DNA of 11,929 nucleotides from a bacterium (GTDB lineage: Bacteria; UBP6; UBA1177): positions 1 through 11,929 of the forward strand of contig DAOQAY010000090.1 of NCBI GenBank assembly GCA_035354435.1, given 5' to 3'. Numbering within the stretch: position 1 is the first letter of the stretch; the number at the start of each line of letters is the position of its first letter. The notes below the pieces were generated by a model. It ran no database searches and was not told the DNA's origin. It saw only the letters and a program-made list of their open reading frames with translations. A program made the position numbers and the translations under genes. Positions 3,503 to 8,751 of this stretch are shown here, piece by piece.

Positions 3503-4573
3503 ATGAAATATTTTATCATTTGTGCGGTGTTTATCCTTTTTACAGCATGTGAGAACAGTGTTAAGATAAAAGGTGACATTGAATCTGTGAAAGATGCGGA
3601 TATTTCAGTAGCCGATGAAGATACTGATTTTGTACAAGTACCTGATACTAATGATGAAAACATTGCCGATGATGCCGTCGATGAGATAGTTGTTCCTGAT
3701 GACGATACGATCGGTGACGGTTGTCTGACCAACGATGACTGCGGGACTGATACATACTGCCTGAAAGATGCCGGCGTGTGTGATGCAGTAACGGTCGGTG
3801 TCTGCACAGTGCGTCCTGAAAACTGTTTTTATACCCGTGCCATTGAGCCTCAATGCGGCTGTGACAATTATACATACAGCAACGAATGCTGGGCCGGATC
3901 TGCCGGAGCAGTGATCGCTCATGCCGGTGAGTGTGAAGGCGATGTTCTGTGCCGGGATTCCTCAGCATGCAGCATGAATGAATACTGTCAGAAAAAACAA
4001 GGAGTTTGCGATATGGGAATGGGTGTGTGCCGTCCAGCCCTTGAAGACTGTAACGGTCAGGAAGACCCGGTAGTCTGCGGATGCGATCTTAAACAGTATA
4101 CAGGTGAATGTCAGGCCCAACTATCCGGAATATCTGTGAAACACGATGGGGAGTGCAACCGCAATGACGATTCGCTTGTCAGGTATTTCTATGCCGATAA
4201 TGCTGAATCAATAGACGGTTATCTGAAAATTATAGTGTCTCCGGTCGAAATAAAGGAATTTTTTGCGATAGACACATTCCAGGAACAGTTCATGGATAGC
4301 GAAAATTCGGTCATTATCACAGTCCGTTTCTACGAGAAAGGCGATATGAATAAAGATTACGCAGAGTTGCAATACAAACTCTCCATGCCGCTGACACTCC
4401 CCATGGGCGTAGGCTTCGGATATGAAGGAAGTTATCTCAAATGGTTCAGCTTCGACGGCGGGGAACTCGGCGACATGGACGGCACAGTGATCACATACGA
4501 TTATATACCGCTTGACAAAGAAAACGAAGTCTCAACCCTCAGTGTGACCGGACTGAACCTGTCGATGAAGTAG
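3503..4573 (+). CDS. Secreted lipoprotein with an acidic linker and two tandem Cys-rich modules, each ending in a Kazal-type-inhibitor-like motif. The C-terminal roughly 140 aa form a Cys-free domain.
   Basis: GGAGG RBS at 3491-3495 and ATG at 3503. The ORF-track start at 3467 lacks an RBS and overlaps the upstream gene. Signal peptide MKYFIICAVFILFTAC has lipobox FTAC. A D/E-rich low-complexity linker follows. CGCDNYTYSNECWAGSAGAVIAHAGEC and CGCDLKQYTGECQAQLSGISVKHDGEC resemble the Kazal CGSDGxTYxNxC...HxGxC motif. Stop TAG at 4571-4573. Confidence 0.65.
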   Translation: MKYFIICAVFILFTACENSVKIKGDIESVKDADISVADEDTDFVQVPDTNDENIADDAVDEIVVPDDDTIGDGCLTNDDCGTDTYCLKDAGVCDAVTVGVCTVRPENCFYTRAIEPQCGCDNYTYSNECWAGSAGAVIAHAGECEGDVLCRDSSACSMNEYCQKKQGVCDMGMGVCRPALEDCNGQEDPVVCGCDLKQYTGECQAQLSGISVKHDGECNRNDDSLVRYFYADNAESIDGYLKIIVSPVEIKEFFAIDTFQEQFMDSENSVIITVRFYEKGDMNKDYAELQYKLSMPLTLPMGVGFGYEGSYLKWFSFDGGELGDMDGTVITYDYIPLDKENEVSTLSVTGLNLSMK

Positions 4574-4660
4574 AGATCCCATATTTCAAACAAATTCATT
4601 TTTTAAATTGATAATCAAACATCAAAGTTTAGAATATCCTGAATTGATTATTGAAAAATT

Positions 4661-4687
4661 GTAGGGGCGAGATTTATCACGCCCTTT
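4661..4687 (+). repeat. Left copy of a 27-bp inverted-repeat pair (GTAGGGGCGAGATTTATCRCGCCCTTT).
   Basis: Its reverse complement recurs at 6676-6702 with 26/27 identity (A/G at one position). Each copy is itself a GC hairpin. Confidence 0.7.
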
Positions 4688-4689
4688 TT
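4661..4689 (+). terminator. Rho-independent terminator of the Kazal-like lipoprotein gene.
   Basis: tAGGGGCG-agatttatca-CGCCCTt forms a 5-7 bp GC stem with a 10-nt loop, followed by TTTTT at 4685-4689. It lies 88 nt after the stop codon. Confidence 0.6.
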
Positions 4690-4772
4690 GAGTGGATGTT
4701 TAGATGTCGGACATTACTGAAGGGTTTGAAAGAATTAAATGAAAATAGGAGTAATGTTGTGGAGAGAAGGTG

Positions 4773-5741
4773 ATGGTAAGCGAAGAACAATCAAAAAGGA
4801 ATGCAAACATTAGCAGAGAATTATTATTAAAATCGGATTATTTTAAAGACATCGTTAGTTTTGCAGAATATTTGAGAAATTCGCCAGTAATGAACGAATT
4901 TTTGAAGTTCAGGCAGGATTTACAAAAATCTATAGAACCCGTTCTGTCAATGATTCAAAAGATTCAAGACACCGCCAGACCTTATTTGTTGAAAGCAATT
5001 CCTACATTGAAATATTTTGTAATTAGAGACAGTTATTTCTATATTTCAGATGATTGTTTTTTAAAAGAATTGGAAGATAGATACTCAAACACTATAGATA
5101 AAAATATTCTTTTAAACTTTATTGAAGAATTTTATTCCAGAAATAATTATGAAGAGATGTGCAGATTAATTGATGAATTGGACAGTTTCGAGCTTATTGA
5201 AAAAAGGATTCACATAATAAAAAGTGTAAAATCTGTGATTTCAAGTGGTTTAAAAGACACGGATATTGCAAATGTTGTGATACCTGTGATTATTTCGCAG
5301 TTAGATGGAGTAGTTAAAGACTTTTACATTAAGCTGGATCCAGAGATTAGTAAAAAGAAGATATTAAAACATAAAAATGTATTAAGAGAAAATCCCCTAA
5401 TAAACGACATTTCCTTTTCTAATTATATAAATATTCTTCATCCTATTTTCTATCTATTTGAGTTTGAAAATGGCATTAAAAACGAAACGAAAAAAAACGA
5501 AAACAATCACGAAGAATATTTTATTGAAAAAGCTACAGAGGAAGAATTAGAAAATTATGTTTTGAATCGAAATGGAATCATGCATGGAGAAAAAGTAGAT
5601 TACGGCAAAAAAATTGAGTTGATAAGAGTGGTTTTATTTTATGATACAGTTGTTAAATCTGTAACAAATGCAATAAATGATATAAATAAGAAAATATTGG
5701 AAAATAATGAAGAAATAAAAATCGTTGAGGGCGAGAAGTGA
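4773..5741 (+). CDS. Hypothetical protein with a C-terminal HEPN-type Rx4H motif. Candidate RNase effector (Abi/toxin-like).
   Basis: About 322 aa. RBS GGAGAG at 4761-4766, ATG at 4773, and an alternative GTG at 4770. Eyeball GC about 30%. Motif LNRNGIMHGE at nt 5568-5585 fits the HEPN R-[NHQ]-x3-H signature. No Walker A/B motif is seen. There is a 1-nt overlap with the downstream gene. Confidence 0.6.
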   Translation: MVSEEQSKRNANISRELLLKSDYFKDIVSFAEYLRNSPVMNEFLKFRQDLQKSIEPVLSMIQKIQDTARPYLLKAIPTLKYFVIRDSYFYISDDCFLKELEDRYSNTIDKNILLNFIEEFYSRNNYEEMCRLIDELDSFELIEKRIHIIKSVKSVISSGLKDTDIANVVIPVIISQLDGVVKDFYIKLDPEISKKKILKHKNVLRENPLINDISFSNYINILHPIFYLFEFENGIKNETKKNENNHEEYFIEKATEEELENYVLNRNGIMHGEKVDYGKKIELIRVVLFYDTVVKSVTNAINDINKKILENNEEIKIVEGEK

Positions 5742-6583
5742 TGATGGAATCAAAGCTTAGAAATTTGTTAAGATTTGAAGCACAGGAAATAAAAATGTCT
5801 TTTGAAAAGGCGAGTATTGAAGGTCAAGGAACGCCGCAAGAAATTGCTGACCGTAGAGAAGCCGCTTTTGTCTCTTCCTTCTTAAAAAAATATTTTCCTT
5901 TTCCGTATAGGATTGAAAAAGGAAATATTATTGATAGCTATAATAACAGAAGCAATTCAATAGATTGTATTATATTAAACCCATCCCATCCTTACACAAT
6001 AGATCCCAAAAATGAAAGAGCTTCAATAATATTTGCTGATGGTGTCGATTGTGCAATAGAAATAAAGCCAGATCTTGCTAATAACCATGAATTAATTAGA
6101 AGTCTAGATCAGATTAGAAGTGTGAAAAAGTTAAGACGCAAAAGAGACGGATTATTGTTGAAAGGCAAATATAATGATCATCAATTGCTCACAGCGAAAA
6201 CAATTCCTTCTTTTATTTTTGCAGATAGAACATATGTCGATTTAAGGTTATTAATTAGTCAAATTGTAGAATACTTTATAAAGGAAAGAGTTCCTTATGA
6301 CGAGCAGTTTGACTATATCGTTATAAACAATAGAGGTCTCATATTCAATTCAAGAAAGGACTTTTATTGTGATCTCAAACCAACTGAAGGAATTTGTTTT
6401 GCTGAAACACAAGAAGATACAATTGCTACATTTTTATTGTTGCTTAACAATCTGCCAAAATCAGAACCAGCAATTAGCGAGAGTGTTTTGAGCTTTTACC
6501 TTGATAATAGTTTGTATTCTGACAAATTGAAGACCTTTCAAGATATTAACGAAAAAATGCATGCTGTTTTAGGTAAACCTTGA
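5741..6583 (+). CDS. Hypothetical protein with a candidate PD-(D/E)xK (restriction-endonuclease-fold) nuclease motif.
   Basis: About 280 aa. The ATG at 5741 overlaps the TGA of gene A (gTGATGatg), with alternative starts at GTG 5738 and ATG 5744. Strand-turn-strand SIIFAD-GVD-CAIEIK has D at 6038-6040 and E-x-K at 6059-6067. It is preceded by GTPQEIADRRE (helix Glu) and SIDCIIL. There is no nucleotidyltransferase (MNT) motif. Eyeball GC about 30%. Confidence 0.6.
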   Translation: MMESKLRNLLRFEAQEIKMSFEKASIEGQGTPQEIADRREAAFVSSFLKKYFPFPYRIEKGNIIDSYNNRSNSIDCIILNPSHPYTIDPKNERASIIFADGVDCAIEIKPDLANNHELIRSLDQIRSVKKLRRKRDGLLLKGKYNDHQLLTAKTIPSFIFADRTYVDLRLLISQIVEYFIKERVPYDEQFDYIVINNRGLIFNSRKDFYCDLKPTEGICFAETQEDTIATFLLLLNNLPKSEPAISESVLSFYLDNSLYSDKLKTFQDINEKMHAVLGKP

Positions 6584-6595
6584 GCGTCCTTCTTT

Positions 6596-6644
6596 TGATT
6601 CACAGCACATTCCTCTATAATTTCCCCATAGCGAATCTTGGAAG
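6596..6644 (+). repeat. Copy 1 of a duplicated junction segment (TGATTCACAG-cacattcctctata-ATTTCCCCATAGCGAATCTTGGAAG). It contains a perfect TATAAT at 6616-6621.
   Basis: It aligns to 6740-6773 (TGATCACACAG-ATTTACCATAGCGAAATCAAGAAG) with a 14-bp indel that removes most of the TATAAT. Possible -35 elements are TTGATT (15-nt spacer) or TTTTGA (17-nt spacer). Confidence 0.5.
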
Positions 6645-6675
6645 AAAAAGGGAAAACAAATCCAAATTCAAAGAG

Positions 6676-6702
6676 AAAGGGCGCGATAAATCTCGCCCCT
6701 AC
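6676..6702 (-). repeat. Right copy of the 27-bp hairpin repeat, in inverted orientation.
   Basis: The minus strand reads GTAGGGGCGAGATTTATCGCGCCCTTT, followed by CTC rather than a T-run. Confidence 0.7.
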
Positions 6703-6714
6703 GGAAATTCAACC

Positions 6715-6736
6715 GCAAATTCTCTTTAGTAAATAA
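6715..6736 (+). repeat. Direct repeat DR1 (GCAAATTCTCTTTAGTAAATAA).
   Basis: An identical 22-mer sits at 7717-7738, which is the 3' end of the dinD-like CDS (...TANSL*). The DR1 reading frame also encodes ...TANSL* but shows no further similarity upstream. Confidence 0.7.
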
Positions 6737-6739
6737 TCT

Positions 6740-6773
6740 GATCACACAGATTTACCATAGCGAAATCAAGAAG
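6740..6773 (+). repeat. Copy 2 of the duplicated junction segment.
   Basis: See copy 1. It lies immediately downstream of DR1 and upstream of the dinD-like promoter region (TTGACT at 6779-6784). Confidence 0.5.
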
Positions 6774-6858
6774 TTAGATTGACTTTTAAGAAGTATTCTA
6801 TATTGTTTTCCATGTTCTGGGCTAAATATATGGCAATATTTGCAACAAGGAGTCTTAA

Positions 6859-7731
6859 ATGGACAGAAGGCTTATCCAGTCAATGAAATCAATATTTGAT
6901 GAACTTACAAAAAAAATAAATGAGGAAAATATTGAGTTCTGGTTCGCCAGAGAGATCATGGAACATCTGGGATATGCTCGCTGGGAAAATTTTCTGACAG
7001 CCATTAACCGTGCGATTTATTCTTGTATATCAACAGGTACAGATCCAGAAGACCATTTTCGTGGAGTAAAGAAAATGGTTAATATCGGTAGTAGCGCAAC
7101 AAGAGACATAGATGATTTTATGCTTACTCGTTACGCATGCTATTTAATTGCTCAAAACGGCGATCCGAGAAAAGAGGAAATTGCTTTTGCTCAAAGTTAT
7201 TTTGCTTTCCAGACAAGAAAACAGGAAATTATTGAAGATAGAATGCAGCTTCAGTTTCGTATTGAAGCCAGGGAAAGACTAAGAGAATCAGAAAAAACAC
7301 TGTCACAGAATATTTATGAAAGAGGTGTTGATGATGATGGTTTTGCTAGAATAAGATCTAAAGGTGATGCAGCACTATTTGGTGGTAATTCAACTCAGAT
7401 GATGAAGGATAAATTCGGGATTACACAGTCACGGCCTCTAGCTGATTTTTTGCCGACATTGACAATTGCTGCAAAAAATCTTGCGACTGAAATGACAAAT
7501 CATAATGTATTGGAAGAGGATTTAAAAGGCGAAGAATCAATAACTGATGAACATGTGCAGAACAATAAAAGTGTCCGCGAAATGTTGGAAAAACGAGGAA
7601 TTCAACCTGAGAGTCTTTCTCCAGAAGAGGATATTAAAAAACTTGAGCGACGAGTAAAATCAGAAGAAAAAAAATTGGCAAGACAATCTGGTAAATTGCC
7701 AAAAAATAAAACCACTGCAAATTCTCTTTAG
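6859..7731 (+). CDS. dinD: DNA-damage-inducible protein D family protein (DinD-like).
   Basis: 290 aa. The blocks EFWFAREIMEHLGYARWENF, HFRGVKKMVNIGS, LTRYACYLIAQNGDP, AQSYFAFQTRKQE and the C-terminal IKKLERRVKSEEKK track my recollection of E. coli DinD (EFWSARELAPLLDYRDWRNF, LSRYACYLVVQNGDP, GQTYFAIQTRRQE, IKQLENSVKITEKK). RBS AAGGAG at 6848-6853. Eyeball GC about 40%. Confidence 0.85.
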   Translation: MDRRLIQSMKSIFDELTKKINEENIEFWFAREIMEHLGYARWENFLTAINRAIYSCISTGTDPEDHFRGVKKMVNIGSSATRDIDDFMLTRYACYLIAQNGDPRKEEIAFAQSYFAFQTRKQEIIEDRMQLQFRIEARERLRESEKTLSQNIYERGVDDDGFARIRSKGDAALFGGNSTQMMKDKFGITQSRPLADFLPTLTIAAKNLATEMTNHNVLEEDLKGEESITDEHVQNNKSVREMLEKRGIQPESLSPEEDIKKLERRVKSEEKKLARQSGKLPKNKTTANSL

Positions 7732-7738
7732 TAAATAA
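7717..7738 (+). repeat. Direct repeat DR2, identical to DR1 and overlapping the dinD-like stop codon.
   Basis: Identical 22-mer, 1002 bp downstream of DR1. Confidence 0.7.
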
Positions 7739-7744
7739 ATTATC

Positions 7745-7807: not shown

Positions 7808-8751
<944 letters not shown>

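Follow-up and report, generated by a model that had tools for sequence, protein, structure and literature searches.

Positions ~4574-7740 of the window (the whole 11,929-nt stretch of contig DAOQAY010000090.1 that was analysed) probably constitute a small defence islet that was acquired horizontally and lies between two lipoprotein genes of the core genome, in which one operon encodes a HEPN ribonuclease (gene A) and a stand-alone NucC-like DNA endonuclease (gene B), and to which a dinD-like gene also belongs; this judgement applies to the explanation as a whole. Genes A and B are both on the plus strand and tightly coupled, with inverted hairpins matching at 26 of 27 positions on either side. 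The features of the locus are as follows.

4608-4635, plus strand: candidate sigma-70-type promoter, TTGATA-16-TAGAAT, 10 of 12 matches, the best site in 4300-7100
4661-4687, plus strand: left REP-type hairpin, GTAG followed by GGGGCGAGATTTATCACGCCC and a T-run, 27 nt, -11.1 kcal/mol
4770-5741, plus strand: gene A open reading frame, 323 aa from GTG, or 322 aa from the ATG at 4773 (NCBI and JGI call)
4773-5741, plus strand: gene A, 322 aa, all-alpha, with an N-terminal helical region (residues ~1-110) and a HEPN-like domain (~111-320)
5738-6583, plus strand: gene B open reading frame, 281 aa from GTG, with alternative ATG starts at 5741 and 5744
5744-6583, plus strand: gene B, 279 aa, DUF6602/NucC-like PD-(D/E)xK nuclease, assigned from family profile matches and invariant residues
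6676-6702, minus strand: right REP-type hairpin, inverted copy of the left, T-rich tail on the minus strand
6706-6736, plus strand: copy of the last codons of dinD (...TANSL*), stop and trailer, in direct repeat with 7708-7738
6859-7731, plus strand: dinD-like gene with a Bro-N domain, the third gene of the islet (NF008573 DinD 4e-110; Bro-N 1.6e-11; PDC-S13 1e-115)

Gene coupling and transcription signals

The junction between the two genes reads AAG-TGA-TGA-TGG, with the gene A stop codon at 5739-5741. The GTG start of gene B lies 1 nt ahead of this stop, the ATG at 5741 (JGI call) begins on its last base, and the ATG at 5744 (NCBI call), which is the start agreeing with homologues, lies 2 nt past it. 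Every candidate start of gene B therefore abuts or overlaps the gene A stop, and the two genes are tightly coupled regardless of which is used; the first-pass annotation was thus right about the coupling, but the literal ATGA-type overlap that it described does not exist. An identical A-B arrangement was found on six contigs. The promoter-like site at 4608-4635 is located between the upstream gene and the left hairpin, and transcription from it would run through the hairpin into gene A. The count of promoter-like sites was not above shuffle expectation, and the site is therefore a candidate only. No Rfam family was matched within 4400-7000.

Base composition and acquisition of the segment

The low GC content that was first judged by eye was borne out by computation, at 27.9% for gene A, 31.9% for gene B and 30.4% between the hairpin arms, compared to 42-46% in the flanking genes. 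GC3 was likewise depressed (0.26 and 0.24 in genes A and B, respectively, versus 0.35-0.47 in the flanking genes), so that the segment is compositionally foreign. The codon-adaptation index relative to the core genes of the window was only slightly lower (0.63-0.64 for A and B, 0.66-0.78 for the others), as could be expected if A and B were ordinary housekeeping or other non-defence genes with a GC content lowered by amino-acid bias rather than by acquisition. We regard such an origin as extremely unlikely, given the GC3 values, and given that a word-indexed search of 5.8 billion proteins returned a single relative of gene A (47% identity, 84% of the query), and that relatives are scattered over phyla in defence settings. 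The fall in GC starts directly past the stop codon of the upstream gene (4573), and hence before the left hairpin.

No empty site proving recent insertion was found; all six contigs carrying the exact gene A product come from a single population and do not differ in their intergenic DNA. For the upstream lipoprotein, the closest homologue that could be used (56% identity) is encoded at the end of a contig, in a locus lacking synteny.

Gene B encodes a DUF6602/NucC-like nuclease

The D...ExK motif from which a nuclease had been proposed for gene B belongs to a PD-(D/E)xK fold, as demonstrated by matches to DUF6602 and NucC. The product matched Pfam DUF6602 with an E value of 2.7e-18 (66.2 bits against a cut-off of 27), as well as the PADLOC models PD_DExK (4.5e-16) and NucC effector (6.5e-16), and a profile search of PDB sequences retrieved Serratia NucC (8.4e-10) together with the Vibrio and E. 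coli proteins. The earlier view that neither protein could be placed in a described family consequently does not hold for gene B, which is a NucC homologue carrying the domain of the Damona system. Numbering residues from the GTG at 5738, the motif comprises I75-D76 (D76 at nt 5963-5965), E108 (6059-6061) and K110 (6065-6067), which align with the ID and EVK of NucC, and S-I-D76, D101, D104, E108 and K110 were invariant in 34 homologues. Among the matches listed, all 120 gene B homologues carried PF20247.

NucC (PDB 6P7O, 6UXF, 7ZGV), an effector of CBASS and type III CRISPR systems, shares with gene B the PD-(D/E)xK core and has a like ID...ExK spacing and a similar size, and the two are collinear over ~170 columns; hhalign against a bona fide CBASS NucC gave 88.8% probability over 169 columns (residues 50-241). 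The similarity is nevertheless distant (E 1e-9 to 1e-16) and lies mainly in the N-terminal 130 residues, with the C-terminal half aligning weakly. NucC proper requires a cyclic trinucleotide. No CBASS cyclase (CD-NTase/SMODS) was detected in the window or the 15.8-kb contig stretch, and there was no type III CRISPR system near gene B. A SMODS neighbour was present in only one of 40 members of the gene B clade, another difference from CBASS. The clade consists mostly of stand-alone genes in defence islands, where the neighbours include MmeI restriction-modification (R-M), a RES-domain protein, an AAA_21 ATPase, ThsB-TIR, AbiTii and a SMODS protein.

These features resemble those of Damona, a single-gene anti-phage system from the Vibrio cholerae chromosomal integron in which DUF6602 alone is sufficient for defence, and for which the authors reported secondary matches to Cas PD_DExK and CBASS small endonuclease (bioRxiv 10.1101/2024.07.02.601686). 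Gene B has the same Pfam domain and the same two secondary matches, a likeness of domain and description rather than of alignment, and its clade is likewise mostly solo in defence islands. It differs in that its locus is not an integron cassette and in that it is coupled to a HEPN gene.

Gene A belongs to a HEPN-like family without a name

Gene A carries the motif R267-N-G-I-M-H272-G (residues counted from the GTG at 4770; R267 to H272 at nt 5568-5585, G to 5588), and the HEPN-type R-x4-H that had been noticed in the sequence withstood closer analysis, both in its conservation among relatives and in the HEPN-like fold of the predicted structure. An exhaustive search yielded 235 remote relatives, forming 235 clusters at 50% identity; all 11 close relatives retain R267-x4-H272-G, and among 80 remote ones its conservation is 90% or higher. 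A structural model built on the 80-relative alignment reached a pLDDT of 92, compared to 38 with a two-sequence alignment, and is an all-alpha bundle that can be superposed on solved HEPN domains, with its best likeness to the HEPN proteins Roquin, RnlA and LsoA. We infer from these results that gene A encodes a HEPN-superfamily protein, predicted to be a metal-independent RNase with R267 and H272 as catalytic residues.

Curated libraries did not capture the family. Pfam, NCBIfam and PADLOC (v2) held no family for gene A or its 80 relatives, and no named HEPN family (Pfam clan CL0291, Abi_2, DUF4145) was reached; an hhalign comparison with an Abi_2 protein reached a probability of just 0.2%, the A-family profile produced only coiled-coil noise against PDB sequences, and a Foldseek search of the model against PDB and BFVD gave nothing significant. 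A metagenome scan with A-family peptide patterns found nothing, and the wider alignment was too divergent for patterns to be derived. As originally remarked, neither A nor B shows an ATPase or nucleotidyltransferase, since none was matched in the family searches.

The relatives of gene A reside mostly inside R-M operons, often with overlapping reading frames, and seven of the 11 A-family contexts show coupling to DNA-targeting defence genes. Two relatives occupy the position of PrrC between hsdS and hsdR (L001, P0002; L039, P0123), a third overlaps hsdS (L040, P0124), and others adjoin or overlap N6_N4 methyltransferase and SNF2/ResIII genes (L169, L173). Elsewhere, an A-family gene follows a CBASS cyclase (8.9e-87) and NucC (L041), or adjoins Abi_2 (L042). 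Overall, relatives come from scattered phyla and occur in R-M operons, defence islands and a Tn7-like element, and the defence contexts expected of such proteins were indeed found for both genes.

Gene A is therefore comparable to PrrC/RloC and to R-M-linked HEPN proteins in its Rx4H motif and in the positions of its relatives, including those overlapping type III-like methyltransferase and helicase genes. Unlike PrrC/RloC, it has no ABC-ATPase (no nucleotide-binding family was matched), with residues 1-110 modelled as helices, and its partner in the window is a solo nuclease, there being no type I R-M operon here. The RnlA and LsoA toxins and the Roquin HEPN domain are structural neighbours with sequence identities of 6-12% and a different domain composition. 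No RnlB/LsoB-type antitoxin gene is present, and the window has no minimal nucleotidyltransferase antitoxin gene of the kind found in HEPN-MNT toxin-antitoxin systems. A toxin-antitoxin pair serving addiction or stabilization instead of phage defence accordingly seems improbable to us: neither protein resembles a known antitoxin (no MNT, RnlB-like or DNA-binding domain), both are enzyme-sized with conserved catalytic residues, and they mostly occur without each other.

Relationship between genes A and B

A two-gene cassette had been envisaged for A and B, and comparative analysis did not support it as a conserved pair. None of the 39 other B-clade loci had an A-family gene nearby, except for one distant, frameshifted copy (L002). 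Counting the window, the A-family gene was absent from 38 of 40 B-clade loci and DUF6602 from nine of 11 A-family loci; the only one of the ten other A-family loci with a DUF6602 gene is L041, where that gene is a bona fide CBASS NucC accompanied by its cyclase. Adjacency of the two was thus limited to three independent contexts, namely the window, L002 and L041. Searches of phage and plasmid collections with both proteins (tblastn) gave no match, and IMG/VR contained two relatives of gene B and one distant relative of gene A, with no entry containing both. Because A and B are mostly found apart, they may be two independent modules joined in one operon.

The most likely working model for A-B is a two-pronged defence of the abortive-infection type, in which the gene B product would degrade DNA, while the gene A product, like PrrC beside EcoprrI, would serve as an accessory or back-up effector that cuts RNA (tRNA or mRNA). 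The PrrC analogy, and the linkage of HEPN clades to R-M systems, are established in PMC3710099. Domain identities, foreign composition, shared orientation and coupling, and the defence settings of relatives are observations; the enzymatic activities of A and B, what sets them off and whether A relies on B are inferred. It is conceivable, but rather unlikely, that A-B is an obligate two-component system, in which the HEPN protein binds the nuclease, guarding it or held latent by it, and would be set off, in the manner of PrrC with EcoprrI, when phage proteins block or stimulate the nuclease. The overlapping or abutting reading frames of A and B, the coupling of the A family to DNA-targeting genes and the three independent cases of its adjacency to DUF6602 are consistent with such a dependence, as is the PrrC-type logic proposed for HEPN clades linked to R-M systems (Anantharaman et al. 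2013, PMC3710099). The numerous loci at which either gene lacks the other argue against it, as do the frameshift in the L002 A-family copy and the presence of a dedicated cyclase with the L041 NucC. We offer, also tentatively and with more doubt than conviction, a broader version, whereby the A family would be a general "rider" or guard subunit able to join diverse defence enzymes that target DNA (type I and type III-like R-M, CBASS-NucC and solo NucC-like nucleases), and A-B would show it in its simplest form, with two genes making up a new abortive-infection system of two components, with an RNase controlled by, or controlling, a signal-independent NucC-like DNase.

Whether coupled to gene B or not, gene A is a member of a HEPN-like family of fair size that is named in no curated library (Pfam, NCBIfam, PADLOC v2) and occurs repeatedly inside R-M and nuclease operons. 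Defining it would add a new family to defence-system annotation and a compact model of RNase "second lines" wired to DNA-targeting immunity. Gene B provides further evidence for NucC-like nucleases working outside cyclic-oligonucleotide signalling, and how solo NucC-like nucleases are silenced is a question that the A-B operon could make testable. If A and B prove independent, the locus would simply be another islet of defence genes, and a small one.

The flanking hairpins are REP elements

Inverted 27-nt hairpin copies had been reported around the two genes, and we confirmed them at 4661-4687 and 6676-6702. The arms, 1,988 nt apart, are complementary at 26 of 27 positions and each fold at -11 to -12 kcal/mol; no other inverted pair in the window is as long, and 200 shuffles gave no match. 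Their proposed role as boundaries of a cassette was not upheld, because they are dispersed REP/RAYT-type copies, and such pairs also enclose ordinary genes. The exact 21-mer of the hairpin was present at a minimum of 119 loci (at least 119) in unrelated metagenome contigs, and the family had 237 copies at up to 4 substitutions. GTAG starts both window arms and nearly all of ~90 copies among the matches listed, and ~40 of the at least 119 loci are ordinary short convergent doublets with spacers of 17-32 nt. Six loci have, only tens of nt away from the REP, a 228-aa ORF that is a RAYT candidate, matching Pfam Y1_Tnp (25.8 bits against a cut-off of 23) and containing HUH-like (NHFH) and YIVNNP motifs, which we take to be RAYT hallmarks. 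In GTAG plus imperfect palindrome, multiple copies, convergent doublets and nearby Y1_Tnp, the hairpins therefore match REP/REPIN elements with their RAYT (IS200-like Y1), and they are not private cassette ends. They differ in the wide separation of the window arms, and in the identity of a 24-mer across contigs of very different GC (38-62%), which is unusual for REPs. A literature search for the hairpin sequence returned primer coincidences only.

It is scarcely likely that the 2-kb segment is the cargo of a REP-bounded mobile unit, with two convergent REPs worked in trans by a RAYT so as to carry defence genes from genome to genome. The convergent arms around low-GC DNA would suit this reading, as would the sharing of the 24-mer between contigs of such different GC and the finding that, in L051, the same REP family encloses a low-GC GmrSD gene directly beside a RAYT. 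Against it, both the fall in GC and the candidate promoter begin outside the left arm, no RAYT occurs within 15.8 kb around the window, convergent pairs of the same REP also enclose recG-like and glnK-amtB genes, and many copies are the ordinary doublets described above. There was also no convincing target-site duplication; a transposon origin of this kind was rejected, as only AAATT was common to the arm edges by eye and was judged to be chance. To our knowledge, RAYTs move REP/REPIN units only.

An integron gene cassette was considered and rejected as well, because the genes called across the 15.8-kb stretch include no integrase and the hairpins are REPs rather than attC-like sites.

Within the islet as we interpret it, the REP hairpins may act as terminators or attenuators of transcription. 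A TTTTT run follows the left arm, with no call there in a consensus terminator scan; this arm may serve the upstream lipoprotein gene as a terminator-like element or, within the gene A leader, work as an attenuator.

The dinD-like gene and its duplicated end

The dinD-like gene is also low in GC (36.4%) and GC3 (0.255), and its product matches a PADLOC candidate single-gene defence family (PDC-S13). The end of dinD is duplicated at 6706-6736, just outside the right hairpin, with 6712-6736 and 7714-7738 identical at 24 of 25 positions (repeat family D8; also family D4).

Gene content and composition

This locus is best read as a small, horizontally acquired defence islet, containing a HEPN-like predicted RNase of an unnamed family associated with restriction-modification (R-M) genes (gene A), a Damona-type solo NucC-like nuclease (gene B), and dinD. 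ORF calls confirmed the two coupled, low-GC ORFs described in the first-pass annotation:

4770/4773-5741, + strand: gene A, ORF co-oriented with gene B
5738/5741/5744-6583, + strand: gene B, ORF with three possible starts

As read from the sequence, every possible start of gene B is overlapped or abutted by the gene A stop codon (5739-5741), and a GAGG lies ~13 nt 5' of the ATG at 5744; the two genes are predicted to be co-transcribed. The GC check proposed in that annotation was run, and both genes were lower than their flanks. Computed GC content was 27.9% in gene A and 31.9% in gene B, versus 42-46% in the surrounding genes of the window (flotillin, a PLP-dependent enzyme, cysteine-rich lipoproteins, groES/EL and a GspC-like gene), and GC3 was 0.26 and 0.24, respectively, versus 0.35-0.47. 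The next gene, a dinD homologue (6859-7731), was likewise low in GC (36.4%), and GC fell directly past the upstream stop codon at 4573, indicating a foreign segment of ~4574-7740. The interval proposed earlier, 4661-6702, is thus indeed low in GC, but too narrow in extent. The dinD homologue matched NF008573 (4e-110), contains a Bro-N domain, and matched the PADLOC candidate single-gene defence family PDC-S13 (1e-115). This match, together with its low GC, indicates that the islet holds three defence-associated genes.

Gene B and the NucC-like nucleases

Gene B scored 66.2 bits against Pfam DUF6602 (threshold 27), and also matched the PADLOC models for a Cas-associated PD_DExK domain and the CBASS NucC effector. 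A profile of 34 gene B homologues matched the solved NucC structures of Serratia, Vibrio and E. coli (best E 8.4e-10), and hhalign aligned this profile with a bona fide CBASS NucC over 169 columns (probability 88.8%). I-D76 and E108-x-K110, plus D101 and D104, were invariant in the 34 homologues, the first two forming the same ID...ExK arrangement as in NucC. These matches and residues identify gene B as a predicted NucC-like PD-(D/E)xK nuclease, in agreement with the restriction-endonuclease-fold D...ExK motif noted earlier; the accompanying view that the system could not be placed is superseded by the DUF6602 assignment. Damona is a single-gene anti-phage system of the Vibrio cholerae chromosomal integron, and its authors report the same DUF6602 domain and the same two secondary matches as we found for gene B (bioRxiv 10.1101/2024.07.02.601686). 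It was the only paper mentioning the domain in a literature search for DUF6602.

The gene B clade is common, with 293 matches in a homologue search, and no conserved partner gene was found in 37 reference-genome loci. Neighbours included an MmeI-type R-M enzyme, a RES-domain protein, an AAA_21 ATPase, a ThsB-like TIR protein, AbiTii, assorted proteins of unknown function and, once, a SMODS protein. The last of these (CD-NTase-like; Pfam 2.1e-14) follows the gene B homologue of Polaribacter filamentus (L017, 6001-7961), the sole locus of the clade seen with a possible cyclase partner. A sub-clade of six loci from Clostridia and Mollicutes MAGs (L018, L019, L021, L022, L023 and L025) has its own conserved upstream gene of ~240 aa, which overlaps the gene B homologue, is unrelated to gene A, and has neither a Pfam or PADLOC match nor an Rx4-6H motif. 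This is possibly a different two-gene DUF6602 system.

An unnamed HEPN-like family

Searches of Pfam, NCBIfam and PADLOC gave no match for gene A, and its one PHROG match, to a group of unknown function, was weak. A word-indexed search of 5.8 billion proteins returned gene A itself and one relative (47% identity), while an exhaustive HMMER search seeded with these two found 235 cluster representatives. In an alignment of 80 of the 235, residues W137, R146, P172, L174, Q177 and G180 were nearly invariant, as were R267-x-x-I-x-H272-G and Y278-G279; none of the 80 had a relevant Pfam, PADLOC or NCBIfam domain. Conservation of R267-x4-H272-G across these relatives supports the HEPN-type R-x4-H motif proposed from the sequence. 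Eleven independent contexts of the family were examined, including the window.

Genomic contexts of A-family genes
L001: between hsdS and hsdR of a type I R-M system, in a Tn7-like element, adjoining two GmrSD genes
L039: in the hsdS-hsdR interval of a type I R-M system
L040: overlaps an hsdS gene
L169: precedes an N6_N4 methyltransferase by 3 nt
L173: overlaps both a SNF2-type helicase and a methyltransferase, type III-like system
L041: follows a CBASS cyclase-NucC pair after 22 nt (PADLOC cyclase 8.9e-87, NucC 6.6e-102)
L042: adjoins an Abi_2 gene
L171, L174: islands that also carry toxin-antitoxin genes
L180: distant relative on a viral contig
Window: gene A, coupled to DUF6602 gene B

Tight coupling to a DNA-targeting defence enzyme was seen in seven of the eleven. 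Anantharaman et al. (PMC3710099) found the same R-M-linked pattern in at least 16 clades of HEPN proteins, and accounted for it with PrrC and EcoprrI as the model. PrrC and RloC have an ABC ATPase, whereas gene A does not, and membership of gene A in that family was therefore ruled out; by analogy, it may work in a similar way. The location of relatives of both genes among R-M, CBASS and Abi genes supports the defence role originally suggested. In L039, the A-family gene is part of a five-gene operon, hsdM-hsdS-A-X-hsdR, in which the overlapping gene X (4029-4769) directly follows it. The 246-aa product of X starts MKRGICKYCGDEKELQKSHVIPKHFY, has no family match, and may be HNH-like.

Association of genes A and B

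The proposed search for a conserved neighbourhood was run, and A-B proved not to be a conserved pair, contrary to the two-gene system first envisaged: when the surroundings of 39 other genes of the B clade (37 genomic and 2 viral) were searched with the A-family HMM, 38 had no family member within ~6 kb. The exception, a Bacillota MAG (L002), carries the closest gene B homologue (70% identity), with a distant, frameshifted A-family gene ~420 nt downstream (41.7 bits with frames joined). Among the other A-family loci, a DUF6602 gene occurred in L041 only, as a NucC with its own cyclase. These three independent adjacencies (window, L002 and L041) are more than we would expect for two rare families; the majority of A-family and of B-clade members occur apart. 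Neither gene was found in plasmid and phage collections. Genes A and B could be interdependent or independent. The locus is valuable chiefly for its unnamed HEPN family and as an opportunity to test the control of a signal-less NucC-like nuclease.

Flanking hairpins

The 27-nt inverted repeat reported earlier (4661-4687 and 6676-6702, 26/27 identical) is real: the window has no longer inverted repeat, and 200 shuffles yielded none like it. Its 21-nt hairpin core, GGGGCGAGATTTATCRCGCCC, recurred exactly at least 119 times in metagenome contigs, and the 24-mer GTAGGGGCGAGATTTATC(A/G)CGCCC (window 4661-4684 and 6679-6702) was unchanged in at least 119 contigs (L050-L168). Among the matches listed, GTAG nearly always lay directly 5' of the core, and contigs ranged from 38% to 62% GC with unrelated flanks, so that an identical repeat is common to compositionally different genomes. 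The matches listed also included at least 237 copies with up to four substitutions, convergent doublets with 17-32 nt spacers at ~40 loci, and six loci where a hairpin copy has a 228-aa ORF close by, only tens of nucleotides away. This ORF passed the Pfam threshold for Y1_Tnp (IS200-like), and its motifs resemble HUH and YIxxNP. Dispersed GTAG hairpins, doublets and a nearby Y1_Tnp are what we take to be the signature of REP/REPIN elements and RAYT transposases, a family reportedly defined by Nunvar et al. in 2010 and in the work of Bertels and Rainey. The repeat found in the window behaves as a family of this kind, accompanied by an IS200-like RAYT.

Elsewhere, convergent pairs of this REP with wide spacing surround a recG-like gene and glnK-amtB. 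Because REP pairs bracket ordinary genes, bracketing as such is not evidence of a cassette, and the hairpins can no longer be regarded as the cassette's own boundaries. A parallel to the window was found in a digester contig of 38% GC (L051, 1978-4774), where convergent copies of this REP again enclose a defence gene, a single low-GC GmrSD type IV restriction gene; GC is 33.6% inside the pair versus ~40% outside, and the RAYT gene begins 41 nt past the right arm. The left REP of the window carries a T-run and may act as a terminator for the upstream gene; alternatively, it may attenuate transcription from a candidate promoter at 4608-4635 that is not statistically distinguishable from chance.

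Other repeats

A direct repeat lies on either side of dinD (6706-6736 and 7708-7738; 24/25 over 25 nt, extending to ~31 nt). The upstream copy, at 6706-6736, reproduces the end of dinD from its final codons through the stop into the trailer (...TANSL*). It could be left over from a dinD allele that was replaced, or the repeat could be att-like and belong to a 1-kb cassette. Within a minus-strand gene (7808-8641), a 9-nt tandem repeat of at least 16 units (8367-8564) encodes the GNT/GDT collagen-like repeats of a DUF7478 cysteine-rich lipoprotein. Tract length varies among assemblies of the same population, with one 9-nt gap relative to L044 and ~146 nt more in the NCBI record L045.
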